Positions 6,236 through 55,000 of a stretch of DNA of 64,000 bases are shown here, piece after piece. A program made the translations under genes and the position numbers. Position 1 is the first letter of the stretch; the number at the start of each line of letters is the position of its first letter. The notes beneath the pieces were generated by a model. The model saw only the letters and a list, made by a program, of their open reading frames with translations. It was not told the origin of the DNA and made no database searches. Source of the stretch: Paracoccus haematequi (lineage in GTDB: Bacteria > Pseudomonadota > Alphaproteobacteria > Rhodobacterales > Rhodobacteraceae); contig CAMCVS010000001.1 of assembly GCA_945881965.1 (NCBI GenBank), positions 41,402 to 105,401 of the forward strand, in the 5' to 3' direction.

Positions 6236-6334
6236 GTTAAATCTTCCAGCATACTGTCGCTGCCATGCAGCATGTCAATTCCGTTACACATGACGGAACG
6301 CAGAACGCTGACCGACCAAGAAAAGGAACATACC

Positions 6335-37194: not shown

Positions 37195-38985
37195 CTATTT
37201 CTCGCGCGGGATCACGCGCAGCGACAGGTCCATCAACTGCTCTGCGGTGGGTTCGCTGGGCGCGCCCATCAGCAGGTCTTCGGCGCGCTGGTTCATCGGG
37301 AACATGATGACCTCGCGGATGTTGGCCGTATCGGCCAGCAGCATCACGATCCGGTCGATCCCCGCCGCGCAACCGCCGTGGGGCGGCGCGCCATATTGGA
37401 ACGCATTGACCATGCCGCCAAAGCGCCGCCGCACCTCGTCTTCACCATAGCCCGCGATCTCAAACGCCTTGAACATGATCTCGGGCTTGTGGTTGCGGAT
37501 CGCGCCACTGACCAGCTCATAGCCGTTGCAGGCCAGATCATACTGATAGCCCCGCACGGCCAGCGGATCGCCCGCCAGCGCGTCAAGGCCCCCCTGCGGC
37601 ATGGAAAACGGGTTGTGTTCGAACTCGATCTTTCCGGTCGTCTCATCCCTGGCATAGATCGGGAAATCCACGATCCAGGCAAAGGCAAAGCGGTCCTTGT
37701 CGATCAGGCCCAATTCCTCGCCAATCACAGTCCGCGCGCGCCCGGCGATCTTTTCGAACGCCGCAGGCTTGCCGCCCAGGAAGAATGCCGCATCCCCCAG
37801 GCCGAGGCCCAGTTTCACCCGGATCGCCTCCGACCGCTCGGGGCCGATGTTCTTGGCCAGCGGCCCCGCCGCCTCTATTCCCGATCCATCCTCGGCCTCG
37901 CGCCAGAAGATGTATCCCATCCCCGGCAGACCTTCTTTCTGGGCCCAGGCGTTCATGCGGTCGCAGAACTTGCGCGAGCCACCTTTCGGCGCCGGAATGG
38001 CCCGCACCTCGGTGCCGTCCTGTTCCAACAGACGCGCGAACACTGCAAACCCCGACCCCGCGAAATGCTCGGACACCACCTGCATCCGGATCGGGTTGCG
38101 CAGGTCGGGCTTGTCGGTGCCATACCACAGCGCGGCATCGTTATAGGCGATCTGCGGCCAATCCTCGGCCGCATCCACCCGCCGCCCGCCGCCGAATTCC
38201 TCGAACACCCCCGCGATCACCGGGGCGACCGTGTCGAACACGTCCTGTTGCGTGACGAACGACATCTCCATGTCCAACTGGTAGAAATCGGTGGGCGAGC
38301 GGTCGGCCCGCGGGTCTTCGTCGCGGAAACACGGCGCGATCTGGAAATACTTGTCATAGCCCGACACCATGATCAGCTGCTTGAACTGCTGCGGGGCCTG
38401 CGGCAGGGCATAGAACTTGCCCGGATGCAGCCGCGACGGCACCAGAAAATCCCGCGCGCCTTCGGGGCTGGACGCCGTGATGATCGGCGTCTGAAACTCG
38501 CGGAAATTCTTCGCCCACATGCGCTGGCGGATGGAACGGACCACATCCGTGCGCAGCACCATGTTGTGCTGCATCGCCTCGCGCCGCAGGTCAAGGAAGC
38601 GGAAACGCAGCCGCGTTTCCTCGGGGTATTCCTGATCGCCGAACACCTGCAACGGCAGTTCTTTCGCCGCACCCAGAACCTCGACGCCGGTCGCGAACAC
38701 CTCGATCGCACCGGTGGCGATCTTGGGGTTCACCAGCGCCGCATCGCGCGCCTTCACCCGGCCATCAATCCGCACACACCATTCGGCGCGCAGCTTTTCG
38801 ACATCGGCAAAGGCCGCACTATCCGGATCGCAGATCACCTGCGTCATGCCGTAATGGTCGCGCAGGTCGATGAACAACACGCCGCCGTGGTCGCGCACCC
38901 GGTGCACCCATCCGGCAAGGCGCACGTCATGGCCAACATGACCCTCGCGCAGATCGGCGCAGGTATGGCTGCGATAGGCGTGCAT
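37195..38985 (-). CDS. aspS: Aspartate--tRNA ligase
   Basis: [13 protein letters not shown]...[22 protein letters not shown], class II motifs ([19 protein letters not shown]). GGAGAA RBS before the ATG at 38985. Confidence 0.97.
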
Positions 38986-39110
38986 GGCTGGTTCTCCGGG
39001 GTGTGACAGTGACCGGACGGATACAGCGTGGCAGGCCGGGGAAGTCAAGCAAAAGCCCCGCCTGCGCCCCGTGCAACCTTGTCCTTCTTCGGTTCATAAC
39101 TATCCCGGGG

Positions 39111-39171
39111 GGTCTGGGGGGCTGGCCCCCCAGCTTGCTGTGGTCTGGGGGGCTGGCCCCCTGCCTTTTTT
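39111..39171 (+). repeat. Two perfect 20-bp direct repeats, each a GC hairpin; the second is followed by T6
   Basis: ggtctggggggctggccccc occurs at 39111-39130 and 39142-39161. Each copy holds the GGGGG(G)-ctgg-CCCCC(C) stem-loop, and tttttt lies at 39166-39171. Confidence 0.6.
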
Positions 39172-39190
39172 AGGGTCGGGAGCTGAGCGC

Positions 39191-39276
39191 TGTGGGACAG
39201 TTTGCGGTAGGCGCGAAAAAATAGCAATCTTTTTCAGTGGCTTGCGGATGGGCAATGTCTGACTGTTTGCGGTAGG
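39191..39276 (+). repeat. Candidate Mu-type left-end transposase binding sites
   Basis: TGTGGGACAGTTTGCGGTAGG (39191-39211) and TGTCTGACTGTTTGCGGTAGG (39256-39276) match at 18/21. Related GCGGATGG lies at 39244-39251 and GCGGTAAGG at 39353-39361. Confidence 0.5.
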
Positions 39277-39445
39277 TTTGGCGGTTTCGGGTTGAAAAGC
39301 CCTGTTTTCGCGTGATCCGGCAAAATGCGGCTACGTGATTTCAATGTGTTAGGCGGTAAGGTGTGGCGCAAGTGCGCTACACGCTACACCCAAGCCGAAG
39401 CATCAAACGTGGTCTTGATCGCCATTTTTTGAACGTTGCGAGGGC

Positions 39446-39925
39446 CTATGACGCCACATCCAAGTTTGGCTTTGTCGCCGGTAATGCTGCCAGCGCGGCT
39501 GCACGGTTTGCAGCGTCTTTCGCAATCTCGTCAGCCCATGCGTCAGGGGACAGACCCATAAGCAGACCTTCCTTGAAGATAATGCCATCCTTGTTCGATT
39601 GCATGGCCGCTTCAAAGAGGTTGAACACCGCAGCGAGTTGTAACTTTGCAGCGGCGAGTGAACACAGGCGAACAAGCCGACTTTGGCTTACCGCATGGTG
39701 GGCGTCACCAAAAACCAGCCAGTCCACCGGCACACCGAACCCATCTGCCATCCTGGCCAACACTTCGACACTTGGCACCTGTGGCGAAGATTTGCGCATG
39801 TAGTTTTCCAAAGACCGTTTCGGCAAGTTTGCCAGAGCGGCCATCTCACTGACAGTCCAATCGTTCTGAGCCTGGAGCTTTCGCAACCGGGCCGCGAATT
39901 CTTCGGGTGTGTAGCTGAAGGTCAT
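39446..39925 (-). CDS. XRE/Mu c-type HTH repressor
   Basis: WTVSEMAALANLPKRSLENYMRKSSPQVPSVEVLARMADGFGVPVDWLVFGD is an HTH_XRE domain. It is divergent from the ner-like gene across a 40-bp region. Confidence 0.8.
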   Translation of the reverse strand: MTFSYTPEEFAARLRKLQAQNDWTVSEMAALANLPKRSLENYMRKSSPQVPSVEVLARMADGFGVPVDWLVFGDAHHAVSQSRLVRLCSLAAAKLQLAAVFNLFEAAMQSNKDGIIFKEGLLMGLSPDAWADEIAKDAANRAAALAALPATKPNLDVAS

Positions 39926-39953
39926 TGTCTGCCGCTTTATAGGGTGGTTATAT

Positions 39954-39969
39954 CCACTCAATCGAGTGG
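39954..39969. promoter_or_regulatory. Inverted repeat in the repressor/ner divergent control region
   Basis: CCACTC-AATC-GAGTGG overlaps the GTG start of the ner-like gene. An adjacent GTGG-TTATAT-CCAC holds a -10-like TATAT. Confidence 0.3.
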
Positions 39970-40187
39970 TTTTTGGAGCGCGCATTACTGTATCAGAGGC
40001 TTTTCTTTTCCGCCAGAGACGGGTTCGCGCGGGCTTTGTTGCAAAGGGAACGAGCCTTGCTGAATGGTGTGAGAAGCGCGGCCTAAAGCATCCCAACGTC
40101 CACAAGGCATTGATGGGCCAGTGGCAAGGCCCTAAGGCATCTGCCATCGTGGAAGAAGTTCTTGCCGCCTCTTGGGTGGAAGAATGA
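39966..40187 (+). CDS. Ner/Nlp-like DNA-binding protein
   Basis: 73 aa. VRAGFVAKGTSLAEWCEKRGLKHPNVHKALMGQWQGPKASAIVEEVL parallels the Mu Ner / E. coli Nlp layout. Its position between the repressor and the transposase fits. GTG start. Confidence 0.6.
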   Translation: MVFGARITVSEAFLFRQRRVRAGFVAKGTSLAEWCEKRGLKHPNVHKALMGQWQGPKASAIVEEVLAASWVEE

Positions 40188-42120
40188 CACTTGTTAAGGT
40201 CAAGTCGCTTTCTGGCCTTGCCGGGCTTCCTACACGCTGTCGCAATGTCGGGAATTGGCTAAAGTCGCGGCAAATCAACACCATCGAAGTTGAGAGTGTC
40301 GGCGGTCCCGCCCACGCGGTCCACCTGACAGACCTGCCCGAAGACGTTCAGCGCGCATGGCGGATGCGTGATCTGGCGGCGGCGGGGCTGGATCAGGGGG
40401 CGTTTGATGACGCAGCGTGGCAAGCCTATTATGAAGCCCCGCCGCGCATGCGGGCCAAGGCCGAAGGGCGGGCCAAGCTGGCGCGGTTTCTGGTGACAGA
40501 GGGACGGGCGCTGTCGTGGTCGCAAAAGACCGCCGAGGCGGCGCGACGGTTCGGGCCGGTGGGCACATCGACGGACAGCCTGCAAAGGATTGCCAAGGCG
40601 GTTGAAGGGGTTGCGCCGATCAATTTCGCCCCGGCGCTCTTGTCGGACTATCCCTGCCAAGCCTTTAACAAGGTGGATATTTCGCCTGAAGCATGGGCGT
40701 TCTTCCTGACGACCTTGCGCGATGCAGGGGCGGAATTCCCATCAAATCAGCTTGGCGCGATGTGCGGGACGTGGCGACGGCGCGGGACTGGACTTGGCCC
40801 GCTTATGAGACGGTGTTGGCGCGGTTCAATGCCTTGCCACCTTCGGAACGGCTGTATCTTCGGCACGGGCGCGAAGAAGCAGCGCGCCGCCTGTCGATCC
40901 AGGCCGGGCGTGACAAGACGACGATTGCGCCGCTGGAATGGGTATCGCTTGACGGTCGGAAGCTGGATTTCTGGGTGGACTTCGGCGACGGCAAGGCGGT
41001 GCGCCCGATCATGCTGGCCTTGGTGGACGTGGCATCGAACAAAGTCATTGGCTATGAATTGGCGGCATCCGAAAACGCGGTGGCTACGTCGCGGCTGATC
41101 CGGGCAACTGTCCAGAAATACGGGATTTTCAAACGCATCTACACCGACAACGGGTCGGCCTTTGCCGGTCATCTGATGGCGGGTGGCAATGTCCACAAAT
41201 GGCGGGGCAAGCGTGGCGCAGATCAGGGGGTCAAGCCGCCGGGGGTCTGTTCGCTGCTGGGGATCGCGATGCACTTTGCGCTGCCGCGCAATGGGCAAGC
41301 GAAGATCGCGGAACGGTTCTTTGCAAACGCATCGCGCCAGATAGATGACCGACCCGATTTCAAGGGTGGGCATGTCGGGCACAAACCCGGCGAAGCGCCC
41401 CCCGCCGGGGTTGTGCCTGTGCCGATTGAGGTAGCCAGCCGTGTGATCGAACGGGAGATCGCCCGCCACAATCTCGAGCAAGGGCGGCGCGCGGATGGGG
41501 CCAAGGGCCGCTCCTATGCCGAGGTATTTGAAGACGGGTTGAAGCGCCGGATCAAGAAACCGGCACCAGCTCATCAACTCTATCTCGCCTCGCTGATCTA
41601 CAAGCCGGTTTCTGTGGACCGGAACGGGCAAGTCAAGGTGGATGGGTGGGTCTATGGCGGGCCAAAAACGCAAGACGATCTTTTGCGCTGGCACGGCAAG
41701 GGGCAGATATTGGTGGGGCGCGACCCCGACGATTTCACCGCGCCCGCTATCGCCTATGACGCAGACGGGCACTTGATCTGTGTGGATATCCAGCCGATGC
41801 AGGCCGGGGAATATGGCAGCGTGGACGGGGCGCGGGTCGCTGCGCGCAACCGCAAGGCGGCGCGGGCGGTGGTGGCCAAGTCGGCACAGGCCGACAAGTT
41901 CCTGTCAGATCAGGCCTTTGCCGATGCGCTGGAAGCAATCCCCACGCCGGTTGACGCCATGCCAGGGCCGGAACCCGTTGTGTCGGGCCGGTTCGGATCA
42001 CCCTTGCGCAAGGCCAAGCCAATTCCCGCCGCGTCAACAGAGGCAGTGCCCGAAGAATACCGGAGGAATTTCGATGCTCAAATCGCGGCGCTGAAGGCGC
42101 GGGGCGAGAAGATAGCATGA
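40184..42120 (+). pseudogene. MuA-like DDE transposase, interrupted by a -1 frameshift near 40738
   Basis: The N-terminal part runs in frame 2 (40184 to about 40738, ...DISPEAWAFFLTTLRDAGAEF). It continues in frame 1 (PIKSAWRDVRDVATARDWTWP...) through the rve-type core (DGRKLDFWV...YTDNGSAF) and the Mu-transposase C-terminal region. Confidence 0.8.
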
Positions 42121-42187
42121 GGAATGTTCGCACCATCCCCCATGCCGATTGCGGGGATTGACCCCGCTTCACTCAGAGGAGGCCACC

Positions 42188-42964
42188 ATGGCAGAACTGT
42201 TACAGTTTTCAAGGCCCTTGCCGGCGGATGACACGTTCATCCGGACGGCGGTGGCGGATGATATCCTTCGATCTATTGACCTTGTGCGTCACATCGAAGG
42301 CCCCGCGATGACAATGGTGTCCGGGGCACCGGGTGTCGGCAAAACCGGGACCCTTGATCACTATGCCCGGATCACCGGGGACGCGTCGATTATGATGACG
42401 GTTGCGCAAGGCGAAGGGAACCCTTCGCATCTGGCATCGGCGCTTATGGGCTACACGCCACGCGGTGTGGGCACAGACGAATTGCGACAGCCGGTCATGG
42501 GGTGTATCGGGCGGGGCCGCGTTCTATTGGTTGATGAAGCGCAACATCTTTATCAGCGTCACCGGGGCACCTGCACCAAGGGGGCCGGGTTCGAATGGCT
42601 GCGCGCCGCCAGCGCGGAAGGCGGGTTCGATGTTGCGTTCTGCGGCGACCTGACCTTGCACCGGATCATTGACGGTTTCGGGCAACTATCAAGCCGGATG
42701 CGCCGCCCGGTGATCATTCCGGGTGTTGAACCGGCGGACGTGCTGGCAAAGGAACATGCCGAAGGCATCGCCGGTGCGAACGCCAACAAACTTCTGACTG
42801 CCGCCGCGCGGTTGAAAGGCGGGCTGCGCAATGTCGAGAACGTCGCCCGCATGGCCAAACTTTTCGCAGCTGATGGCACCGTTACCGCCGGTCATATCCG
42901 GGCGGCGCTGATAGATTTGAAACTTGTGCCAAAAGGGGAAACTGACCATGCAAACGGATCATGA
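42188..42964 (+). CDS. MuB-like AAA+ transposition ATPase
   Basis: Walker A GAPGVGKT and Walker B VLLVDEAQHL. It lies immediately downstream of the transposase. AGAGGAGG RBS. Confidence 0.8.
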   Translation: MAELLQFSRPLPADDTFIRTAVADDILRSIDLVRHIEGPAMTMVSGAPGVGKTGTLDHYARITGDASIMMTVAQGEGNPSHLASALMGYTPRGVGTDELRQPVMGCIGRGRVLLVDEAQHLYQRHRGTCTKGAGFEWLRAASAEGGFDVAFCGDLTLHRIIDGFGQLSSRMRRPVIIPGVEPADVLAKEHAEGIAGANANKLLTAAARLKGGLRNVENVARMAKLFAADGTVTAGHIRAALIDLKLVPKGETDHANGS

Positions 42965-43526
42965 ATGGCGGTTGCAGCAAGCCGCTGAAGGCAAGGCGAT
43001 TTATGTGCCGGGCAAGTCGGTTGCAGAAATGCAGGCGGGGCTGAAGGCGGCAGAAAACGCCCGTATTCCTGTGGTGACGATGCTGACGCAGATGGTGGAT
43101 TTCCTTGGCAGTTGCCATGACACCTTGATCAAGGACTTCAACGCATGGCGGGATGAATTCGAAAAGGGTCTGAATAACCCGGAATTCCGCTATGCCTATT
43201 TCACCCGGCTGGAAGAAATGGACACCATGAAGCGGCGCATTGCCGACTGGCGCACCGCGCTGGACGGCGATGACACGATCACGCTGCACCTGAAGCGGGC
43301 CGAGGCGCTGGCGCTGTCTGTGTCGCTGGAAGAAATCCGCGATGCGACGGCGCGGGCCGAAGGGGCGCTGGCACTATTGGCACGGATGCTGGAAGGCGGC
43401 GACTTCGACGGTCATTCGGGTCTGGCGGATATGGCCAGCCTGTCGGCCAAGGGTATCGGCCTGTCGTTGGAACGCGAAGATGATGTGCTGAACCATCTGG
43501 CCCGTCGCCTGAAATTGGGAAGTTGA
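42948..43526 (+). CDS. Hypothetical phage early-region protein
   Basis: 192 aa, helical, overlapping the MuB stop by 17 nt. GGGGAA RBS. No family recognised. Confidence 0.55.
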   Translation: MQTDHEWRLQQAAEGKAIYVPGKSVAEMQAGLKAAENARIPVVTMLTQMVDFLGSCHDTLIKDFNAWRDEFEKGLNNPEFRYAYFTRLEEMDTMKRRIADWRTALDGDDTITLHLKRAEALALSVSLEEIRDATARAEGALALLARMLEGGDFDGHSGLADMASLSAKGIGLSLEREDDVLNHLARRLKLGS

Positions 43527-43532
43527 GGTGCA

Positions 43533-43946
43533 ATGATGATCAGCCAAAACATGATAAAACTCATTCAGACCGCCAAAAACAAGCTGGGTCTTTCGGATGG
43601 TGAATATCGGACTATTCTGGCGCGGGTGGCGAATGTCACCAGTTGCAAAGATCTTGACCGCGACGGGTTTGATGCGGTCATGGGCCTTTTCGAATGGCTG
43701 GGCTTTGAACCGCGCAAGGCGGGCGGGCCGGATTACGGCAATCGACCTGACATGGCCAGTTTCAAGCAACTGGAATTGATCCGTGCACTGTGGTTCGAAT
43801 GGACCCAAGGCGCGGGCACCAATGAAGGGCTGGCAATATGGATTGAACGGACGTTCAAGGTCACGTCACCGCGCTTTCTGACAACAGAGGCCGCGCAAAA
43901 GGCGATTGGTGCGCTGAAGGCGATGAAGGCAAACCGCGCCGCGTGA
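43533..43946 (+). CDS. GemA/gp16-like (DUF1018) Mu regulatory protein
   Basis: IKLIQTAKNKLGLSDGEYRTILARVANVTSCKDL...SFKQLELIRALW... matches the Mu gp16/GemA family pattern. Confidence 0.75.
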   Translation: MMISQNMIKLIQTAKNKLGLSDGEYRTILARVANVTSCKDLDRDGFDAVMGLFEWLGFEPRKAGGPDYGNRPDMASFKQLELIRALWFEWTQGAGTNEGLAIWIERTFKVTSPRFLTTEAAQKAIGALKAMKANRAA

Positions 43947-44416
43947 CATTGGCGGCAACCAACGGGCCACGACATGACAACGGGGAGGCACCGCAAGGAC
44001 CGCCCCGGATGCGTTTTGGCCCACAGATCAACACCCCCGAAATTTGACCGCCAGACGGGCAAGGCGATGACGTCCGCACCCGACCCCCACGAAAGGGCAG
44101 GACCCCGTTCAATTTCGCCGCGTTTCCCGTTCAATGGGCCATCAGCGCGACGGCTTGTCATGGAGCGGTCGGTGGCGTATCCATTCAACGGGGGATGACC
44201 ACGGAAATCCGGGGTCCGTGACGTCACCGAAAGGTGCTTCGAATGAGGGGACCCGACCCTCCATCCCCCGCACTGGCCCTGCACACTTCACCGCGCCCCA
44301 AATCACCCCGCTACGGTTTGCGGATGTTTCGGTTTGTTCCGGGTCCTTACGGTCGATCTCAGTTGGCGCGGATATCCCGCGCGTTCCCTGATACGCCCAG
44401 ATTGAAGGACCGCCCT

Positions 44417-45307
44417 ATGATCGTAAACACCGCAACTCTCGACCTCGTTTACCGTGGCTGGCAAGCCAAATTCAATGACGCCTATATTGCCGCGCCGTCG
44501 CATTTTGCCGATGTTGCGATGGTGGTGAACTCCACCACGACCGAAGAAAATTACGCATGGCTTGGCAGCTTTCCGCAATTGCGCGAATGGATCGGCCCAC
44601 GCCAGATCAAGAACCTGTCCGCGCATGGCTTCAAGATCGTCAATCGCGTGTTCGAAAGCGCGATTTCAATTCCGCGCGTTCGCATTGAAGATGATCAGAT
44701 CGGCATCTTCACCCCCGCCCTGACTGAAATCGGCCGCGTGACCGCGCAACACCCCGATGAATTGATTTTTGGCCTTTTGGCCAATGGTCTCACCAGCACC
44801 TGTTACGATGGCCAATCGTTCTTCGACACGGATCACCCGGTGTTCAATGCGGATGGCACGGTTGGCCTCACATCTAACATGCAGGAAGGTGCCGGTCCGG
44901 CGTGGTTCCTCCTGGACACGTCGCGCGGGGTTCGCCCGATGATCTGGCAACAACGGCTTGCCCCGGAATTTGTCGCGGTCACACGGTCAGAAGATGAAGG
45001 CGTCTTCCTGAATGACGAATATCGCTATGGAGTCCGCGCGCGCGCCAATGCCTTGTTCGGCCTGTGGCAACTGGCCTTCGCCTCGAAGGCGGCCCTCAAT
45101 GCGACCAACTATGCCGCCGCGCGCGCCGCGATGGCCAGCGTGACCGCCGATGGGGGCCGCAAGCTGGGCATCACACCGACGCATCTTGTGGTGCCGCCGG
45201 AACTGGAAAGCGATGCGCTGCATCTGCTGAACACCGAAATCAAGGATGGCGGCGGATCGAACCCTTGGAAGGGCACGGCGAAGCTGATCATCACGCCGTT
45301 CCTGTAA
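44417..45307 (+). CDS. Mu gpT-like major head subunit
   Basis: 296 aa. WLGSFPQLREWIGPRQIKNLSAHGFKIVNRVFES...HPDELIF...CYDGQSFFDTDHPV...EYRYGVRARAN is closely similar to Mu-like gpT as I recall it. GAAGGA RBS. Confidence 0.9.
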   Translation: MIVNTATLDLVYRGWQAKFNDAYIAAPSHFADVAMVVNSTTTEENYAWLGSFPQLREWIGPRQIKNLSAHGFKIVNRVFESAISIPRVRIEDDQIGIFTPALTEIGRVTAQHPDELIFGLLANGLTSTCYDGQSFFDTDHPVFNADGTVGLTSNMQEGAGPAWFLLDTSRGVRPMIWQQRLAPEFVAVTRSEDEGVFLNDEYRYGVRARANALFGLWQLAFASKAALNATNYAAARAAMASVTADGGRKLGITPTHLVVPPELESDALHLLNTEIKDGGGSNPWKGTAKLIITPFL

Positions 45308-45317
45308 GGACCGCGCC

Positions 45318-46311
45318 ATGACTGGCCTGACGCTTGCCACCTGCACCCGCGACCTGATCCCGGCACCAGACGCCCCCGAATGGGTGCATCTGTTTCCGCC
45401 GGGACGGTTTGCCGCCCGCGATGGACGCGCCTTCGAATTGGCGGACCCCGGCGCAGTCATTCTTGCCTTTCAGGGGGCCGGGGTTGATTTGCCGATTGAC
45501 TTCGAACACGCCATTGACCGGCCCGAAGTCAAGGCCGCGGGCGGACCCATCCCGGCGGCAGGCTGGATCAAGGCCATTGCCAATCGTAAGGACGGGTTGT
45601 GGGCGCAGGTCGAATGGACCGCCACCGCCCGCGCCATGATCCGCGCCAAGGAATACCGCTTCATCAGTCCGGCCTTTCTGCATGACCGCGAAGGCCGGAT
45701 TACCCGCCTCAAAGGCGCGGGGCTTGTTCACATTCCCGCGCTGCAACTCACCGCTCTTGCCAGTCAGGACCCCGCCATGACCCCCGACACCCCCGCCCAA
45801 ATGCCTGCCCCGAAATCACCGATGGAACTGCCTTTGACGGCATGGCTGATCAAGGCGCTTGGCCTGCCGGAAGATGCGACTGATGAAGCCATCCTGGACG
45901 CGCTGAAAGAGCGGTTGGGCAACGCAGAAAAACCTGACCCCAAGAAGTATGTCCCGGTCGAAGCCGTCGCGAAAATGCTGCGTGACCGTTCGGGCGAAAA
46001 GCTGGCCTTGGCTGAAACGCAGGCGACAGAAAAGGTGACGCGCGCGATGCGCGAAGGCTTCATCCCGCCCGCGTTGAAGGCCATCCCGGAAAAACTGGGC
46101 CTTTTCGCTCTGCCGGTCGGATGCCGGGTCCTTCGATGTGTTTCTTGCCAAGTCCGGGCCGATCTTCAGCAACCTGTTTCGGCCCGTGATCACCGGGCTA
46201 CCGCCTCATCAGACACCCGCCATCGCCACCAGCGATGAAGAGGCTGCACTGTGCCGGATGCTGGGCCTGCCGCCGGATCGTCTGGCCCCGGATCGTCTGA
46301 CAAAGGACTGA
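45318..46311 (+). pseudogene. Mu gpI-like prohead protease/scaffold, +1 frameshift in an A5 run (46090-46094)
   Basis: The N-terminal part (WVHLFPPGRFAARDGRAFEL...LPIDFEHA...EYRFISPAF) is in frame 0. The family-like C-terminus (NWAFSLCRSDAGSFDVFLAKSGPIFSNLF...EEAALCRMLGLPPDRL) reads only in frame 1 and stops at 46309-46311. Frame 0 turns into Arg/Cys-rich nonsense. Confidence 0.75.
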
Positions 46312-46323
46312 CCGGCCTGAAAC

Positions 46324-46353
46324 ATCCATCCGGGTGCAGGGACCCGGATGGAT
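46324..46353 (+). terminator. Strong hairpin after the protease/scaffold gene
   Basis: atccatccgggt-gcaggg-acccggatggat is a perfect 12-bp stem 13 nt after the frame-1 stop. No long U-tract. Confidence 0.45.
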
Positions 46354-46459
46354 TGGTCGGGCGTCAGCGGTTGCGCCTGATCAGTCTGGACGCCTCGCCG
46401 CAAGCCTCCTCTGGTGGCGGGGCGTTCTGGCTTCTGACCAATATCGACACGGGCATACC

Positions 46460-46834
46460 ATGACCAATGACGCCATCCCTCGGCCCGCCGTAATCCCGCG
46501 CCCGACAGCGCAGGCGGAACCCTATGTTGAGGCCCTTGGCGCAGAAACCGCCATGGCCTTCCTACTGGCGTTCGGCGGCGCGGAACTCTATCTGGGCGCG
46601 TCCCCGCGTGAGAATACCGCCTATGTGCAAGCCATCGGCCCGGATGGGGCGGCTGCGCTCTTTGCCGTCGCGCATCGGCTACAAAAGCGCGTCCCGCTGT
46701 GCGATGATTGGCTTTCCGCCATGCTGCACTGGCAGGGGCAGTCCATCAGCGGCATCGCACGACGCTTTCGGACAACGGATGTGTCCGTGCGAAAGAAACT
46801 GCGGCGCATGGCAGAACGGGACCGGGGAAGATGA
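46460..46834 (+). CDS. Mor-like / HTH transcriptional activator
   Basis: 124 aa. AFGGAELYLG ... HWQGQSISGIARRFRTTDVSVRKKLRRM parallels Mu Mor (HLGGGQVYIP ... C-terminal HTH). Assignment by resemblance only. Confidence 0.55.
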   Translation: MTNDAIPRPAVIPRPTAQAEPYVEALGAETAMAFLLAFGGAELYLGASPRENTAYVQAIGPDGAAALFAVAHRLQKRVPLCDDWLSAMLHWQGQSISGIARRFRTTDVSVRKKLRRMAERDRGR

Positions 46835-46860
46835 TGAAACGCCGCAGGTTTGGAGCGTAT

Positions 46861-46940
46861 TGTGATGTTGGGCGGGGGTCGAACCCGCATAACGTCACTT
46901 TGCAGCGACGCCTCTTACCCATTGAGGTACACCACATCAC
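46861..46940 (-). tRNA. tRNA-like sequence that I cannot fold into a canonical cloverleaf (possible pseudo-tRNA; GCA in the anticodon-like loop)
   Basis: The minus strand has a D-arm CCTC-AATGGGTAA-GAGG, a stem CGTCG/TGACG around an 8-nt loop CTGCAAAG, and a canonical T-arm GCGGG-TTCGACC-CCCGC. The outer stem is GTGATGT/ACATCAC, but extra nucleotides flank it on both sides. Confidence 0.35.
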
Positions 46941-46994
46941 GGAAACTTCGATGCCGCAAAGGCTAGCGACAATCAACTGCCATCCTGCAACTTC

Positions 46995-47378
46995 ATGACC
47001 GAAAACATCCGTGCCGCCCTCGACCGTTTGCTCGCCGCCCTGCAAGCCGGGTCCGACGTTACCGACCGCGCCATCCGCACGGCAGAGGGGCTGGCTACGG
47101 TCTTACAAGTCCCGGTTGACGCTACCATGAACACCGCGTTGAACACCGCTTCAACGCCCCGTAACCGCCACATCCCACGCGGCAAGATCGAAGCCGACGC
47201 GGCCCTTGAAGCCTTCTGCCGCGCCCATGCCCAAACCCTCACGCTGCCCAGCCTCGCCGCCGCAATCGTGAACCACTTCGGACCTGCCCGCCGGGTCAGC
47301 GTGTCCTCCATCCACCGCTGGTGGCACAGCCGGGGCAAGACACTTCCTGACCCGACAGCCGCGAATTATCAGCTATAA
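46995..47378 (+). CDS. Hypothetical protein (possible C-terminal HTH)
   Basis: 127-aa ORF in a non-overlapping position. The C-terminal LPSLAAAIVNHFGPARRVSVSSIHRWW looks HTH-like. No family recognised. Confidence 0.45.
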   Translation: MTENIRAALDRLLAALQAGSDVTDRAIRTAEGLATVLQVPVDATMNTALNTASTPRNRHIPRGKIEADAALEAFCRAHAQTLTLPSLAAAIVNHFGPARRVSVSSIHRWWHSRGKTLPDPTAANYQL

Positions 47379-47586
47379 TCAGCTAATCCCGCATTTGGTG
47401 GGCAATCGCCGCAGATTGTCTGATCTTACCACCGCAGTATGGTTGAAAGCATACAGGAGCAGCCCCCAAGACCGGCCAACCGCCGCCCATATGGGCTTGC
47501 GCGGGGGGCCGCGTTGTCTATAACCCGCAACAATTTGCGCAGCCCCGCGTGGCGCGTCGCGTTGACCGACCCTCAGGAGATGCCCC

Positions 47587-50500
47587 ATGCCGAAACGCAC
47601 CGACATAAAGTCGATCATGATCATTGGCGCCGGGCCCATCGTGATCGGGCAGGCCTGCGAGTTTGACTATTCCGGCGCGCAGGCCTGCAAGGCGCTACGC
47701 GAGGAAGGCTACCGCGTCATCCTTGTGAACTCGAACCCCGCCACCATCATGACCGACCCCGGTCTGGCCGACGCCACCTATATCGAACCCATCACGCCGG
47801 AGGTGGTCGCCAAGATCATCGCGGCCGAACTCCCCGACGCGCTGTTGCCCACGATGGGCGGGCAGACGGCGCTGAACACCGCGCTGGCGCTTGATGACAT
47901 GGGGGTGCTGGCGCAATACGGCGTGCAGATGATCGGCGCCAACCGCCACGCGATTGAGATGGCCGAGGACCGCAAGCTGTTCCGCGAGGCGATGGACCGC
48001 ATCGGCTTGGAAAACCCCAAGGCCACAATCATCGCAGCACCCAAACTGCCCAACGGGAAATATGACATCAAGGCGGGCGTGCAGGCCGCCGTCGAGGCTA
48101 TCGAATATGTCGGCCTGCCCGCGATCATCCGCCCCGCCTTTACCCTTGGCGGCACCGGCGGCGGCGTGGCGTACAATCGCGATGATTACGAGGCCATCGT
48201 GAAATCGGGGCTGGAGGCGTCGCCGGTGGCGCAGGTGCTGGTGGACGAGTCGCTCTTGGGCTGGAAGGAATTCGAGATGGAGGTCGTCCGCGACCGCGCG
48301 GATAACTGCATCATCGTCTGTTCCATCGAAAACGTCGATCCGATGGGCGTGCATACCGGCGACAGCATCACGGTCGCCCCCGCGCTGACGCTGACCGACA
48401 AGGAATATCAGATCATGCGCAATGGCTCCATCGCCGTGCTGCGCGAAATCGGCGTCGAAACCGGCGGGTCCAACGTGCAATGGGCGATCAACCCGGCGGA
48501 TGGCCGCATGGTGGTGATCGAGATGAACCCGCGGGTGTCGCGGTCCTCGGCGCTGGCGTCCAAGGCGACGGGGTTCCCGATTGCCAAGATCGCGGCGAAA
48601 CTGGCGGTGGGTTACACGCTCGACGAATTGGACAATGACATCACCAAGGTCACGCCCGCGTCGTTCGAGCCGACCATCGACTATGTCGTGACGAAAATCC
48701 CGCGCTTTGCGTTTGAGAAATTCCCCGGTGCCGAGCCCCTGCTGACCACGGCAATGAAATCGGTGGGCGAGGCGATGGCGATTGGCCGCACGTTCCACGA
48801 ATCGGTGCAAAAGGCGCTGGCCTCGCTTGAAACCGGCCTGACCGGCTTTGACGAAATCGACATTCCGGGCGTTGGGGGGCCGGGCGCCCCCGACAAATCC
48901 GCCGTCATCGCCGCCCTGTCCCGCGTCACCCCCGATCGGATGCGCGTGATCGCGCAAGCGATGCGGCACGGGCTGTCGGATGACGAGATCCACGCGGTGA
49001 CCCGCTTTGACCCATGGTTCCTGGCCCGTATCCGCGAAATCATCGACGCCGAGGCGGACATTCGCAAATCCGGCCTGCCGGTGACCGAACACGGGTTGCG
49101 CCAGTTGAAAATGCTGGGCTTCACCGATGCCCGGCTGGCGAAACTCACGGGGCGCGACGAAGATCAGGTGCGCCGCGCCCGCCATAACCTTGGCGTTGTG
49201 GCGGTATTCAAACGCATCGACACCTGCGGCGCCGAGTTTGAAGCGCAGACGCCTTACATGTATTCCACCTATGAGGCCCCCGCGATGGGCGACGTGGAAT
49301 GCGAGGCGCGCCCCTCGGACCGCAAAAAGGTCGTGATCCTCGGCGGCGGTCCGAACCGGATCGGACAGGGCATCGAATTTGACTATTGCTGTTGCCATGC
49401 CTGCTATGCGCTGACCGCCGTGGGCTATGAAACCATCATGGTCAATTGCAACCCGGAAACCGTGTCCACCGATTACGACACTTCGGATCGCCTCTATTTC
49501 GAACCGCTGACGTTCGAACATGTGATGGAAATCCTGCGCGTCGAACAGGATAATGGCACATTGCACGGGGTCATCGTGCAATTCGGCGGGCAGACGCCGC
49601 TAAAGCTGGCGAATGCGCTCTATGAGGCGGGTATTCCTATTCTTGGCACCACCCCCGATGCCATCGACCTGGCCGAAGACCGCGAAAGGTTCCAGGGGCT
49701 GGTCACGCAATTGGGTCTGAAGCAGCCAGTGAATGGCATTGCCCGGTCCGGGGCCGAGGCAATTCGTATCGCCGCCGACATCGGCTTTCCCCTCGTGATC
49801 CGCCCGTCTTACGTGCTGGGCGGCCGCGCGATGGAAATCGTCCGCGACTCTGCGCAATTGGAACGCTATATCACGCAGGCCGTCGTGGTGTCGGGCGACA
49901 GCCCGGTATTGCTGGACAGCTATTTGGCCAATGCGGTCGAGGTTGATGTGGATGCGCTGTCCGATGGCACAACCGTGCATGTTGCGGGCATCATGCAGCA
50001 TATCGAAGAGGCGGGCGTCCATTCCGGCGACAGCGCGTGTTCGCTGCCGCCCCATTCCTTGTCCGACGAAATCGTGGCGGAAATCACCCGGCAAACGCAG
50101 GCGCTGGCCTTGGCCTTGGGCGTCGTGGGCCTGATGAACGTGCAATTCGCGGTAAAAGATGGCGTGGTTTACCTGATCGAGGTGAACCCCCGCGCGTCCC
50201 GCACCGTGCCTTTCGTGGCAAAGGCGACCGACAGCGCGATTGCGTCGATCGCCGCGCGGCTGATGGCCGGGGAACCGATGGCGAATTTCCCGCTGCGCGC
50301 CCCCTACCCCGCCGGTGTCGGCCCCGACACGCCCTTGCCGCTGGCCGATGCGATGACGCTGGCCGATCCGAAAACCCCGTGGTTCTCGGTCAAGGAGGCC
50401 GTGCTGCCCTTTGCCCGCTTCCCCGGCGTCGATACGCTGCTGGGTCCCGAAATGCGGTCCACCGGCGAGGTGATGGGCTGGGACCGCACCTTTGCGCTGG

Positions 50501-50931
50501 CGTTTCTCAAGGCGCAGATGGGCGCGGGCACGCATCTGCCGGAAACGGGCCGCGTCTTCGTGTCGATCCGCGACGACGACAAGACGCCGGACATGGCCGC
50601 CGCCCTGCAAGGCCTTGTGGCAATGGGCTTTGACATCATCGCCACCCAAGGCACGCTGGACTGGGCGCGCGCGCATGGCATCGCCACCACCCGCGTCAAC
50701 AAGGTCTATGAGGGCCGCCCGAACATCGTCGACATGCTGAAAGACGACGCCATCGCGCTGGTGTTCAACACCACCGAAGGCGCGCAAGCCATCAACGACA
50801 GCCGCGACATCCGCCGCGTGGCGCTGATGGACAAGATCCCGTATTTCACCACGGCCGCGGCGGCGGTGGCGGCCGTGCAGGCGATGCAGGCGCGCGGCGA
50901 GGGGTATAAGGTGCGGACGTTACAGGGGTGA
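47587..50931 (+). CDS. carB: Carbamoyl-phosphate synthase large subunit
   Basis: 1114 aa with duplicated ATP-grasp halves ([18 protein letters not shown] / [17 protein letters not shown]) and a C-terminal MGS-like domain. Confidence 0.97.
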
Positions 50932-52089: not shown

Positions 52090-55000
52090 TCAGAACACGA
52101 AGAAATCCGCCTCGCTGAGGATCACGCCAAGGCCCACGGTTGCGAAATGGACGCGCGCGGTGGCGGCAGAGCCGTCCGCGTCGTAAAAGACCGCGCCGGT
52201 GGCCGTGTCATGCATGATGCGGGTGTTAGCCGTCGTGGCAATTCCCCCGACATTCGCCGCGAATTGCAGGGCGGTAATTGCGCCGGGCAAAAGCGCCGTG
52301 AACACCGCGTCATCCAGACCGAAATCATCCACATTCCGGGTGAAATCGGTGATGGTATCGACCCCCGCGCTAGTGAATGCGGTGGCGAAGATGAAATCAT
52401 CCGCCCCGCCGCCGCCCGTCAACGTGTCGTCACCACCCCGGCCCTCCAGCTGGTTGTCGCGCGCATTGCCGGTCAGCATATTGGCCAGCGCATTGCCGGT
52501 GGCATTGATATTGGCCGTGCCGGTCAGGGTCAGGTTCTCGACAAACCGGATGCCAGCTTCGGTATCGAGGCTGTAGGTCACCTTGCTTTGCACCGTGTCA
52601 GTCCCGCCCGCGTCAATGCCGCTGGTGGTGGTGGTGGTCTCGATCACCCGGTCGCCGACACGTTCCACGATATATGTGTCGTTGCCGCCCAACCCGATCA
52701 TGAGGTCATTGCCGCTGCCGCCGTTCAACAGGTTATTGCCGGAATTGCCGGTCAATTGATTGGCCAGCGTATTTCCCGTTCCGTCGATGTTTGCCGTTCC
52801 GGTCAGGATCAGACGTTCGACAAATTGCAGGCCGGGGACCCCGAAAAGCGCGAAGCTGATCGAACTTTGCACCGTATCGGTACCACCTGCGTCGATGCTG
52901 CTGGTGGTTGTCGTGGTCTCGAACACCCTGTCGCCGCTGTTTTCAACGATATAGGTATCGTTGCCTGCGCCACCGATCATGGAGTCTGCGCCGGTGCCGC
53001 CATCCAGGCGGTTGTTCAACGCATTGCCGGTCAGCGTATTGGCCAAGGCGTTGCCGGTGGCATTGATGGTGCGGGTGCCGGTCAGGGTCAGACGTTCGAC
53101 GAATTGCACGCCGACATCAGTTGCCAGGCTGTAGGTGATGCTGCTGAGCACCGTATCCGTGCCGCCTGCGTCGATGCCGCTGGTCGTGGTCGTCGTTTCG
53201 AACACGCGGTCGCCCGCGCTGTCCACGACATAGGTGTCGCTGCTGGACCCGCCCAGCATGGTGTCATTCCCCGCGCCGCCGTCCAGCGTATCGGCGCTGC
53301 TGTCGCCAAACAACTGGTCATCGCCCTCGCCGCCGACCATGGAATCGATGCCCGCACCGCCGATGATTGTGTCATTGCCGCCGAACCCGAACAACGTGTC
53401 GTTGCCGGCACCGCCCAACAGCGTGTTGGCGCTGTCAGTGCCGATCAGGCTGTCGGCGAAACCGCTGCCGGTGACCGCCTCGATGCTGTCATAGATGTCG
53501 CCCGCCGCCTCGCCGGTATTCAGCAGCGCGTTCAGCAGGTTAACCACCACGCCCGCCGCCGCGGTGGAATAATCCGCCGTGTCGATGCCATTGCCGCCTG
53601 TCAGCGCATCGCCACCCGCGCCGCCGATCAGCACGTCATCCCCCTCGCCGCCGTCGAGCGCATCATTGCCCGCACCGCCGTTCAGCGTATCCAGCCCGGC
53701 ATCGCCGTTCAGCGTGTCGTCGCCCGCCTCGCCCAGCAGGGTGTCGTTTTCGGTGCCGCCGTGCATCTCGTCCGCGCCATCGCCCCCCACCAGACTGTCG
53801 GTGCCCGAGTCGCCATGGATCAGATCGTCGCCCGCATGGCCCGTCAGGGTGTCATTGCCGACCTGACCTTTCAACAGATCACGCCCGTCGCCGCCGTTCA
53901 GGCGGTCATTGCCGTCGCCGCCTTCCAGCACGTCATCGCCGTCTTCGCCGTTCAGCGTGTCATTGCCGATGCCGCCGTGCAGGCGGTTGGCCTCGCTGTT
54001 GCCGGTCAGTGCATCGTGGCTGCTGCCGCCGAACACGCCTTCGACATTGCTCACGATGTCGAACTGCGCCGCACCTGCCACCACCGCAGGGCCGCCGGTG
54101 TCGGACAGCGTCACCGTGACCGAAATGGCGCTTGGGGCATAGGACACGATGTCAAACCCGTTCCCGCCGTTGACGTTGTCAAAGCTGCCCGCGACGATCG
54201 TGTCGTTGCCTTCGCCGCCGTTCAGGGTATCTGCGCTGGATGCGCCGACCAGCAGGTCATTGCCGCTGCCACCTTCGAGCAAACTTTGGGTGCCGTTGCC
54301 TGCGGTCAGCGTATCGTCGCCGTCGCCGCCAAAGATCGAATCCAACCCGTCGCCATCGCCGCCGTGGATCGTGTCATTGCCGCGCCCGCCTTCGATCCGG
54401 TCGGTGCCCACGCCGCCGTTGATGCTGTCATCGCCTTCTTCACCGCGCAGGGTGTCGGCACCTTCGCCGCCCAGGATCGTGTCATTTCCTGCGCCACCAA
54501 AGACGGTGTCATTGCCGGTTCCAGCGTCGATGCTGTCGCCCAGATCGGCCGCAGAGATGCCGCCGATGATGCTGTCCGCGCCTTCACCGCCCAGAATGGT
54601 GTCGGACGCATCCGCGCCAAACAGCGAATCGTTGCCGTCCGCCCCGGTCAGCCGGTCGGCACCGCCATTACCCCACAGGATGTTGGCCAGTCCGTCGCCA
54701 ACGATGACATCCGCCTGCGCCGTGCCGATGATATTCTCGATCTCGGTCAGTGCGGCGATATTGACCCGCGTCCCGGTCACCACGGTTGGCCCGCTGCGGT
54801 GGAACACGTTCAACCCGGCGGTCGCCAGGCTGACGTTGATGGCAAAGCCGAACTCGGCAAAATTGCCGGTATCCAGACCGTTGCCGCCCACCCAGGTGTC
54901 GCGGCCCGCCGTATAGGTGAACAGGTCATTGCCGTCCTGGCCGCTGACCGTGTCATTGCCCAGCCCGCCAACCAGAATGTTGTTCAGGCCATTGCCCTGA

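Follow-up and report, generated by a model that had tools for sequence, protein, structure and literature searches.

A conserved family of compact Mu-type elements in Rhodobacterales that may be capsid-encoding phage satellites

A 64,000-nucleotide stretch of the Paracoccus haematequi genome (GenBank assembly GCA_945881965.1, contig CAMCVS010000001.1, positions 41,402 to 105,401; hereafter the window) carries a compact Mu-like element of 8,272 bp, at positions 39184-47455, with both transposon ends present. Its genes are, in order, a repressor, a ner-like gene, MuA, MuB, orf200 and GemA, followed after a 470-nt gap (43947-44416) by the major head protein gene gpT, the head protease/scaffold gene gpI, a Mor-type activator and a small last gene, orf127. 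We are highly confident that this element belongs to a real, conserved and mobile family, members of which we found at about 30 loci. On its gene content, we further propose that it is probably a phage satellite of the Mu type, making a small capsid of its own and depending on a helper phage for the remainder of the virion. An earlier reading of the letters alone (the sequence-only reading) had taken the locus to be a decaying full-length prophage as the simplest case and had raised a satellite-like mini-element as the alternative.

A family of compact elements with defined ends

The left, repressor-side end of the window element (39184-39290, plus strand) starts TGAGCGC, contains putative MuA sites of the TGCGG type at 39203, 39243 and 39268, and carries the repeat ACWGTTTGCGGTAGG at 39197 and 39262. 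The right end (47385-47455, minus strand) starts TGTATGC in reverse complement and contains three inverted TGCGG sites (CCGCA at 47389, 47409 and 47432). No inverted copy of the 15-nt left-end repeat occurs in the whole window with up to three mismatches allowed, and we recognised the right end through the shorter TGCGG core, a symmetric offset and termini conserved in the family. At both ends the first TGCGG site lies 19 nt from the terminus, the element as a whole ends TG...CA, and the sequence GGAGC is present on both sides as a 5-bp target duplication (39179-39183, abutting the family-conserved terminus, and 47456-47460). The left-terminus motif TGA(G/C)(C/G)... is common to the relatives L037, L041, L042, L043, L044, L111 and L113, and the TGT... 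right terminus is also present in relatives; the assignment of the termini therefore does not depend on the flanking bases. Given the multiple transposase sites at each end and the target duplication outside them, the element was inserted as a small unit and not whittled down in situ. The TG-initiated left end and its repeated transposase-type sites had been noticed in the sequence-only reading, which placed the terminus at 39191 instead of 39184 and closed the element too early, at 47380; the real end at 47455 adds orf127, the right end with its three inverted sites and the target duplication.

To collect relatives, we scanned GTDB representative genomes with gpT as the seed and then ran tblastn with the window proteins. 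The search for the same gene set at other sites, which the sequence-only reading had suggested, was productive: about 30 loci have the order gemA-gpT-(head protein)-gpI-mor-(gpG)-orf127. The order gemA-gpT-gpI-mor(-orf127) recurs in Roseovarius dicentrarchi, Sinirhodobacter populi, Tabrizicola, Roseinatronobacter and several metagenome-assembled genomes (MAGs) of Rhodobacterales, and all family members with a named source are Rhodobacterales, including Rhodobacter capsulatus and Tritonibacter mobilis isolates. Optional genes occur in some members, namely phrog_1731, a 'virion structural protein' (vsp), between gpT and gpI, and a gpG/Neck1-type protein after mor. A search of 5.8 billion proteins returned more than 100 gpT clusters with 56-68% identity to the window gpT.

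Measured between conserved termini, complete copies span 8.3-9.2 kb. Besides the window copy these include the metagenome contigs L037 (8,953 bp), L041 (8,483 bp), L043 (8,646 bp) and L044 (8,838 bp), L042 from Tritonibacter mobilis (9,015 bp; CP178517.1), L111 from Rhodobacter capsulatus (8,551 bp; GCA_005144475.1), in which every gene is intact, L113 on a MAG contig (9,059 bp; GCA_963853595.1), and L004 on a Rhodobacterales MAG contig (9,188 bp), between acpP and fabF. Gene calls and Pfam searches for L037, L041, L042, L043, L044, L111 and L113 agree with the compact order. In 21 of the 120 best gpT clusters the longest contig measured 7.4-9.7 kb, and the L037 contig has the terminal TG as its very first bases. 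Both are consistent with assemblies breaking off at the ends of the element, where the flanks vary.

Insertion sites are all different (aspS/carB, acpP/fabF, EF-P/cobB-like, MOFRL/MTTB, MimR/aldehyde dehydrogenase and MFS/YacG), and because the flanking genes differ, the relatives are not fragments of one vertically inherited locus. Perfect 5-bp duplications flank five of the seven testable copies: GGAGC in the window, GCGCA in L111, GCCGT in L113, CTGCC in L004 and TTCAG in L044.

The elements in L042 (3916/12930) and L043 (4421/13066) are independent and lie at unrelated loci, yet both have TGCGC as left flank and GCGCC as right flank, giving only a 4-bp GCGC repeat in place of a 5-bp duplication. 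A preference for certain targets or a stagger particular to this lineage could explain the pattern.

These data bear directly on the possibility that a full-length Mu-like prophage between aspS and carB lost its portal, terminase, tail and lysis genes in place. The two frameshifts described below are what a decaying copy would have, and the right-end sites of the window element are more degenerate than the left-end ones. However, the 8.27-kb unit has both termini and its own 5-bp duplication, and the order T-I-mor is not obtainable by deletion from the I-T order of phages. The identical reduced architecture is found at unrelated sites, with separate duplications and intact genes, and the gpT of the family forms an exclusive clade under purifying selection. 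We consider decay in situ very improbable, contrary to what had seemed simplest from the letters: ends, duplication, recurrence in about 30 loci and selection all speak otherwise. Nor are the relatives successive deletion stages of a full-length prophage, the pattern that the sequence-only reading had named as fatal to its satellite alternative.

The window copy itself carries two single-base homopolymer frameshifts. MuA lacks one C from a CCC run at 40738-40740; with one C added, it encodes 649 aa, of which residues 7-649 align with the MuA of R. capsulatus, itself intact, with 53% of positions identical. gpI has one extra A in an A5 run at 46090-46094; with one A removed, it encodes 330 aa, of which residues 1-323 align with intact relatives. 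No further lesion was found in the window element and the repaired proteins align end to end, as expected from the sequence-only reading, which had reported both frameshifts and judged the other genes intact. Apart from the frameshifts, both halves of each broken gene remain open and full-length. The lesions therefore either arose very recently or stem from the assembly, and the window copy is accordingly either a very recently inactivated family member or an assembly artefact. It is both the smallest and the most divergent member, with a best gpT match anywhere of 68% identity.

We rejected programmed frameshifting in MuA or gpI, as the open reading frames (ORFs) of relatives are single and intact at these positions and there is no slippery heptamer. 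We also rejected the idea that a 'tRNA' at 46861-46941 (8-nt loop, anticodon gcaa) acts as a frameshift suppressor: there is no in-frame TTGC at the gpI site, MuA requires a -1 and not a +1 shift, and the RNA is a cloverleaf characteristic of the family (see below).

Capsid genes and a predicted division of labour with a helper

Gene identities were assigned from Pfam and PHROGs searches of the window ORFs. Both transposition proteins are encoded: a MuA-type DDE transposase (40172-42120, plus strand), frameshifted as described, in which matches to DDE_2 and phrog_310 span both halves (40172-41098 and 40693-42120), and a MuB-type AAA+ transposition protein (42149-42964, plus strand; AAA_22 and Phage-MuB_C, phrog_296). 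The late genes, all on the plus strand, begin with an intact gpT of 296 aa (44417-45307; PF10124, Mu-like_gpT, E = 2e-119). It is followed by gpI (45318-46311; PF10123, Mu-like_Pro, phrog_328), which is read in one frame at 45318-46238 with its C-terminus in another frame to 46311, and by a Mor/C-type late transcriptional activator (46460-46834; phrog_836, E = 4e-17) that shares 46% identity with the protein annotated as late activator in phage RC1.

When the complete ORF set of Rhodobacter phage RC1 was run against the 64-kb window by tblastn, the only matches were to gpT, gpI and Mor, so the window has no portal, terminase, F, tail or lysis gene. These results uphold what had been read from the letters, namely the gene list from repressor to Mor-like gene, the lack of portal, terminase, tail and lysis genes, and the placement of gpT before gpI with the capsid pair between gemA and the mor-like gene, an order that is the same across the family. 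A complete virion module with lysis genes, as in genomes of about 36-40 kb, is found neither in the window element nor at any family locus. The element thus combines a partial virion gene set with regulation and replication of its own (repressor, MuA and MuB), and it belongs to a recurrent type markedly smaller than the presumed helper class (8.3-9.2 kb versus 36-40 kb for cultured phages), both of which are general properties of phage satellites.

To place the capsid genes we ran a marker panel, consisting of RC1 TerS, TerL, portal, F, G, tape measure, endolysin and J plus the family proteins, over about 110 loci. Loci whose gpT is at least 55% identical to that of the window all have the compact order, or whatever part of it the contig holds, and in the panel none of them has TerS, TerL, portal, F or any other packaging or tail gene less than 10 kb away. 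Loci whose gpT is at most 50% identical have the canonical order TerS-TerL-portal-F-G-gpI-(vsp)-gpT wherever the contig holds the upstream flank, with the exception of L008 (gpT then gpI); IMG/VR records with the full module among these distant loci measure 24-56 kb. Neighbour-joining placed the 17 unique compact gpT sequences in a clade exclusively their own, with the window copy at its base.

Within the family, the ratio of nonsynonymous to synonymous divergence (dN/dS) is 0.11-0.25 for gpT and 0.12-0.25 for gpI at a dS of about 0.5-1.5, which indicates that both genes are under purifying selection. Both are full-length in almost all complete copies. The gpI residues D61, H64 and S117 are invariant in 26 compact and canonical sequences and are candidate catalytic residues. 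Compact gpI proteins are 312-340 aa long, and canonical ones 290-376 aa (9 of 10 at 345-376 aa). This evidence is difficult to reconcile with a purely selfish Mu-type transposon in which the head genes are inert baggage from a phage ancestor and are now being lost. Such a history would account for the partial decay of many copies, but it would not predict the low dN/dS over this range of divergence, the integrity of gpT and gpI in almost all complete copies, or the conserved promoter and cloverleaf RNA upstream of gpT, and we regard it as improbable.

Reduced Mu-like lineages also exist outside this clade (L007, 4800-13000; L008, 6200-14100; L009, 2500-11800; and L052), which suggests that Mu-like miniaturisation happened repeatedly. 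L009, from Methylobacterium, has the order gemA-mor-gpI-gpT-vsp and then host genes. In L007 and L008, gpT (with gpI in L008) is followed by a tape-measure-like gene, and L008 also encodes a ParB_N protein.

Based on gene content and on established Mu and satellite biology, we propose the following life cycle for the compact elements as satellites. The repressor would hold the element silent. On induction, MuA and MuB would amplify it by replicative transposition from its own ends, and a Mor/C-type activator, either the element's own or that of the helper, would turn on the late promoter. gpT and gpI would then assemble a shell sized for about 10-11 kb of DNA, a co-resident full-size RC1-type Mu-like siphophage would supply portal, terminase, head completion, tail and lysis functions, and headful packaging from the repressor-side end would yield satellite-only particles. 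The Mor homologue would offer a route to reciprocal activation like that of P4. Because a gpT capsid cannot be filled without a portal and terminase and is not infective without a tail, the element would have to borrow these, and RC1-type siphophages of the same hosts would be natural donors, being the cultured phages with the closest gpT, gpI, gpG and Mor. About 39 kb fills the T=7 head of Mu; scaling by volume from this head predicts about 11 kb for a T=3 and 13-17 kb for a T=4 shell, which the element together with host flanks would fit.

Several observations weigh against this proposal. No helper was identified, and tblastn found no further RC1-like gene in the 64-kb window. Packaging is predicted from the gene content, the candidate packaging reaction has no defined pac site, and the expected capsid size is derived only from genome length. 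L042 and L043, the two remaining testable copies, show just a 4-bp GCGC at each end and no clean 5-bp duplication. Several members are visibly decayed (L011, L031 and L112, in addition to the two frameshifts of the window copy), so that many copies are dead ends. Finally, family, structure and PADLOC searches gave no function for orf127, which is the candidate for a hijacking factor. The satellite-like mini-element put forward in the sequence-only reading has thus gained other copies, a right end and a target duplication, with helper and packaging as its predicted parts. The only hints at a helper are canonical Mu-like contigs under numerically close IMG sample IDs and a report on Phaeobacter arcticus, described below, of an 'incomplete' Mu-like region next to an intact one.

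The capsid genes could instead serve interference: in a mobile element that is never itself packaged, gpT and gpI would co-assemble with, or titrate, the head proteins of an invading Mu-like phage. This would be compatible with purifying selection on the capsid genes and with the lack of packaging genes, and P4, SaPI and PLE are known to disturb helper assembly. We nevertheless consider it unlikely, because the tight range of 8.3-9.2 kb and the repressor-controlled, lytic-type programme with Mor look like a packaged life cycle, and because the spread over Rhodobacterales genera at different sites needs a route of horizontal transfer. Moreover, none of the 10 uncharacterised element ORFs that we scanned, variable early ORFs and gap ORFs included, matched PADLOC, and defence cargo in the early or gap ORFs was rejected on the same ground.

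A different helper is also conceivable. Gene transfer agents (GTAs) are near-ubiquitous in Rhodobacterales, the only order among the named sources of the family, and an RcGTA-type agent could provide the particle if the element supplied a larger shell to fit its 8-9 kb. Set against this are the Mu-type character of gpT, gpI, gpG and Mor, all of which have their nearest relatives in RC1-like phages, and the retention in some members of gpG and the phrog_1731 head protein, which are parts of a Mu-like head module. The shell would also have to fit the HK97-type portal and terminase of a GTA, and we give a GTA helper only a slim chance.

The satellite proposal can be set beside known systems. The closest cultured phage gpT proteins, at 46-48% identity, are those of RC1, RS1 (Rhodovulum) and DMS3-like phages of 36-40 kb. 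Like the element, RC1, RS1 and D3112/DMS3-like phages have a divergent repressor, an early operon with MuA, MuB and GemA, TG...CA ends, multiple internal sites and a 5-bp target duplication, and they share homologous gpT, gpI and Mor as well as the gpG and phrog_1731 head protein present in some members. Unlike these phages, the element measures 8.3-9.2 kb, lacks TerS, TerL, portal, F, tail and lysis genes, carries its head genes between gemA and mor in the order T-(vsp)-I rather than I-(vsp)-T, and adds orf127 as a further, family-specific gene at the end, along with a cloverleaf RNA. Identity between its MuA and the transposases of cultured phages is only 25-29%.

Among satellites, P4 is about one third to one quarter of the size of its helper P2, has a smaller capsid and has its own replication and immunity. 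Its delta protein, a homologue of the P2 late activator Ogr, enables reciprocal transactivation, a role analogous to the one we propose for the element's Mor homologue. P4 uses the capsid protein of its helper, with the size redirected by Sid, integrates site-specifically and replicates as a plasmid; the element, in contrast, brings its own capsid protein and scaffold. More generally, P4, SaPI and PLE remodel helper capsids and are not known to bring a shell protein of their own. The Streptomyces satellites MulchRoom and MiniFlayer are described as encoding their own encapsidation proteins without key replication genes (PMC10690885). In contrast to these, the element has a complete transposition-replication module, and its hosts and gene families are unrelated to theirs.

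Capsid-forming PICIs (cf-PICIs) are presented by Alqurainy et al. as encoding all capsid-formation and packaging proteins and stealing only tails (bioRxiv 10.1101/2022.09.08.507074). Like them, the element is small, chromosomal and equipped with its own capsid proteins, and it would need a helper for the remaining virion. Unlike them, it has a head set consisting of a capsid protein and a protease/scaffold, sometimes with gpG and phrog_1731, which falls short of a full head and packaging set. cf-PICIs integrate by means of a tyrosine integrase and replicate with a primase-replicase; the element has no integrase or primase and has MuA/MuB and target duplications instead. It is thus satellite-like but fits none of the defined satellite families.

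Full-text searches of the literature turned up no account of capsid-encoding satellites that are Mu-like or transposable, in line with the sequence-only reading, which knew of none. A genome report on Phaeobacter arcticus mentions an 'incomplete' Mu-like prophage region beside an intact one (PMC3910698). We see about an even chance that the family represents the first satellites that replicate by Mu-type transposition, bring only a shell protein and protease/scaffold and thereby fix a small head size of their own, a hijacking strategy without precedent, while borrowing portal, terminase, connectors, tail and lysis functions from a full-size Mu-like helper, and keep their late operon under a conserved activator-dependent promoter and a tRNA-like cloverleaf RNA specific to the family.

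If the elements are indeed satellites, they would form a new branch that replicates by transposition in place of an integrase and replicase, with a new split of labour in which the satellite gives shell and scaffold and the helper gives portal and packaging motor. They would be intermediate between capsid-remodelling satellites (P4, SaPI and PLE) and capsid-forming PICIs, and would offer a natural system for how an HK97-fold shell protein and its scaffold set capsid size on a foreign portal. As Mu-type headful packaging carries adjacent host DNA, the elements could also be an unrecognised vehicle of gene transfer in Rhodobacterales, which are prominent in marine and wastewater samples. Such loci are now labelled 'incomplete' or low-quality Mu-like prophages and discarded. 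The family is present in cultivable and genetically tractable hosts, Rhodobacter capsulatus and Tritonibacter mobilis.

Control region, cloverleaf RNAs and orf127

The 470-bp gap that the sequence-only reading had described as non-coding is present, and it holds a conserved promoter and a cloverleaf RNA. From an alignment of eight gemA-gpT gaps and from pattern scans we identified a terminator hairpin immediately behind gemA and, further along, a direct repeat, a sigma-70-like promoter, a cloverleaf, a dyad with a T-rich tract, and then gpT. The G+C-rich hairpin in the terminator position (43981-44007, plus strand) is degenerate in the window copy; each of the eight aligned gaps contains the pattern GGGGCGGnGCC...GGCnCCGCCCC with T's behind it. 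The conserved promoter module (44103-44183, plus strand) consists of the repeats CCCCGTTCAAT (44103-44113) and CCCGTTCAAT (44126-44135), followed by TTGTCA (44155-44160), a 17-nt spacer and TATCCA (44178-44183). The repeats follow the consensus ACCCCGTTTAAwww...(C/T)GTTTAAwww with a spacing of roughly 21-23 nt. Under a strict pattern the repeat pair with GCTTGAC occurs in 13 family sources, and under a looser one in more, the window included. Downstream, a dyad CCGCA-N6-TGCGG with a T-rich tract precedes gpT (44308-44340, plus strand) and is conserved as CCGCAACGGTGTGCGGCTTATTCGG in relatives. This dyad is the third copy returned by the repeat search that found the left-end repeats, and it could be an attenuator or an activator site.

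Among full-length loci the promoter repeat pair was found in L075 only, an RC1-like prophage that carries a 60-90-nt antisense copy within its intact portal ORF (6254-6316, minus strand). This copy is 76-89% identical to the promoters of L050, L112 and L010 and could be a recombination trace or a site of regulatory cross-talk.

The cloverleaf in the window gap, type A (44190-44269, plus strand), starts at the predicted +1 of the promoter and is shared by the window, L003, L004 and L037-L040. It has about 90% nucleotide identity to its counterparts in L037 and L004, compared with only about 60% for the flanking proteins. Its 9-bp closing stem shows five compensatory pairs and its three inner hairpins are invariant. 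An exact-pattern scan of the metagenome contig collection, which evidently does not include the known JGI family contigs, found no further type-A cloverleaves.

A second cloverleaf, type B, is tRNA-like and lies at 46861-46941 on the minus strand, where ARAGORN reports a 'tRNA-???' with a 4-base anticodon. It is unrelated to type A and has homologues within the gemA-gpT gaps of L041, L043, L046, L047, L050, L051, L112 and L111. Compensatory changes affect 8 of its 17 pairs; the D-type and T-type loops are conserved, and the third ('anticodon') arm is hypervariable among homologues. With a covariance model the window copy scored 80.5 bits and family copies 55-97 bits, against 17-31 bits for genuine tRNAs. 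Rfam gave no family above threshold for 46861-46941, with tRNA-Sec at 26 bits versus a gathering score of 47. We rejected a tRNA gene at this position on the basis of this score and the lack of a canonical 7-nt anticodon loop.

Full-length Mu-like prophages contain tRNA-like matches about 0.5 kb downstream of gpT (L024, 11485-11562; L081, 11364-11443; L078, 11352-11430). The L024 match reads as tRNA-Met with a CAT anticodon, and those in L081 and L078 are weak (22 and 17.5 bits). The type-B cloverleaf may have evolved from this prophage tRNA.

Some members carry additional ORFs within the gemA-gpT gap, a 228-aa ORF in L114 (5244-5930), L115 (3913-4599) and L116 (3928-4614) and a 306-aa opposite-strand ORF in L042 (8942-9862, minus strand). 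Neither has a Pfam or PADLOC match, and the gap may be a hotspot for cargo.

The last gene, orf127 (46995-47378, plus strand), encodes a family-specific small helical protein with a C-terminal helix-turn-helix (HTH)-like domain. Homologues occupy the same position in nine aligned relatives, where the gene is always last. About 100 protein clusters match it, of which all named ones are Rhodobacterales and none has a functional annotation. Pfam gave just a weak HTH_32 match, PHROGs and PADLOC gave nothing, and a profile search of the PDB gave nothing meaningful. An AlphaFold2 model built on an alignment of database matches reached a predicted local distance difference test (pLDDT) score of 84, and Foldseek found no match to it in the PDB with E <2.

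An isolated remnant in Paracoccus aminovorans (L118, 9688-10429; KQ955208.1) lies among host genes and consists of a 107-aa unannotated ORF, possibly mor-like, and an orf127 homologue. The same fragment occurs in two metagenome contigs with differing left flanks.

Early genes and flanking DNA

Upstream of MuA, the window element encodes a CI/Xre-type repressor (39446-40147, minus strand; HTH_31 and HTH_3 in Pfam, repressor families in PHROGs), whose likely real start is an internal Met near 39925 and whose position and orientation are the same in relatives. A ner-like small HTH protein follows (39966-40187, plus strand; phrog_15281 and phrog_925, HTH DNA-binding), a name that rests mainly on position. 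Downstream of MuB, orf200 (42924-43526, plus strand) is a variable early gene with no match in Pfam, PHROGs or PADLOC, and in relatives its position is taken by one to three unrelated small ORFs. GemA (43533-43946, plus strand; PF06252, E = 3.5e-22) is the last gene of the early operon.

The window lies on a metagenome contig of 642 kb (ENA ERZ27280300, k141_990269). The element is flanked by aspS (37195-39048, minus strand) and carB (47587-50931), and G+C content between these two genes is 0.54-0.62, down from about 0.65. An exact 26-mer of the predicted empty aspS-carB site had no match in the metagenome contig collection, and looking up the exact AspS protein yielded this contig only. Two copies of a host palindromic repeat, GGTCTGGGGGGCTGGCCCCC, lie immediately to the left of the insertion, within 39111-39161, and comparable G/C-rich palindromic repeats lie beside the insertions in L111, L113 and L010. 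Further along the window, a minus-strand ORF of 3,381 aa (52090-62235) with HemolysinCabind (RTX-type) repeats is unrelated to the element.

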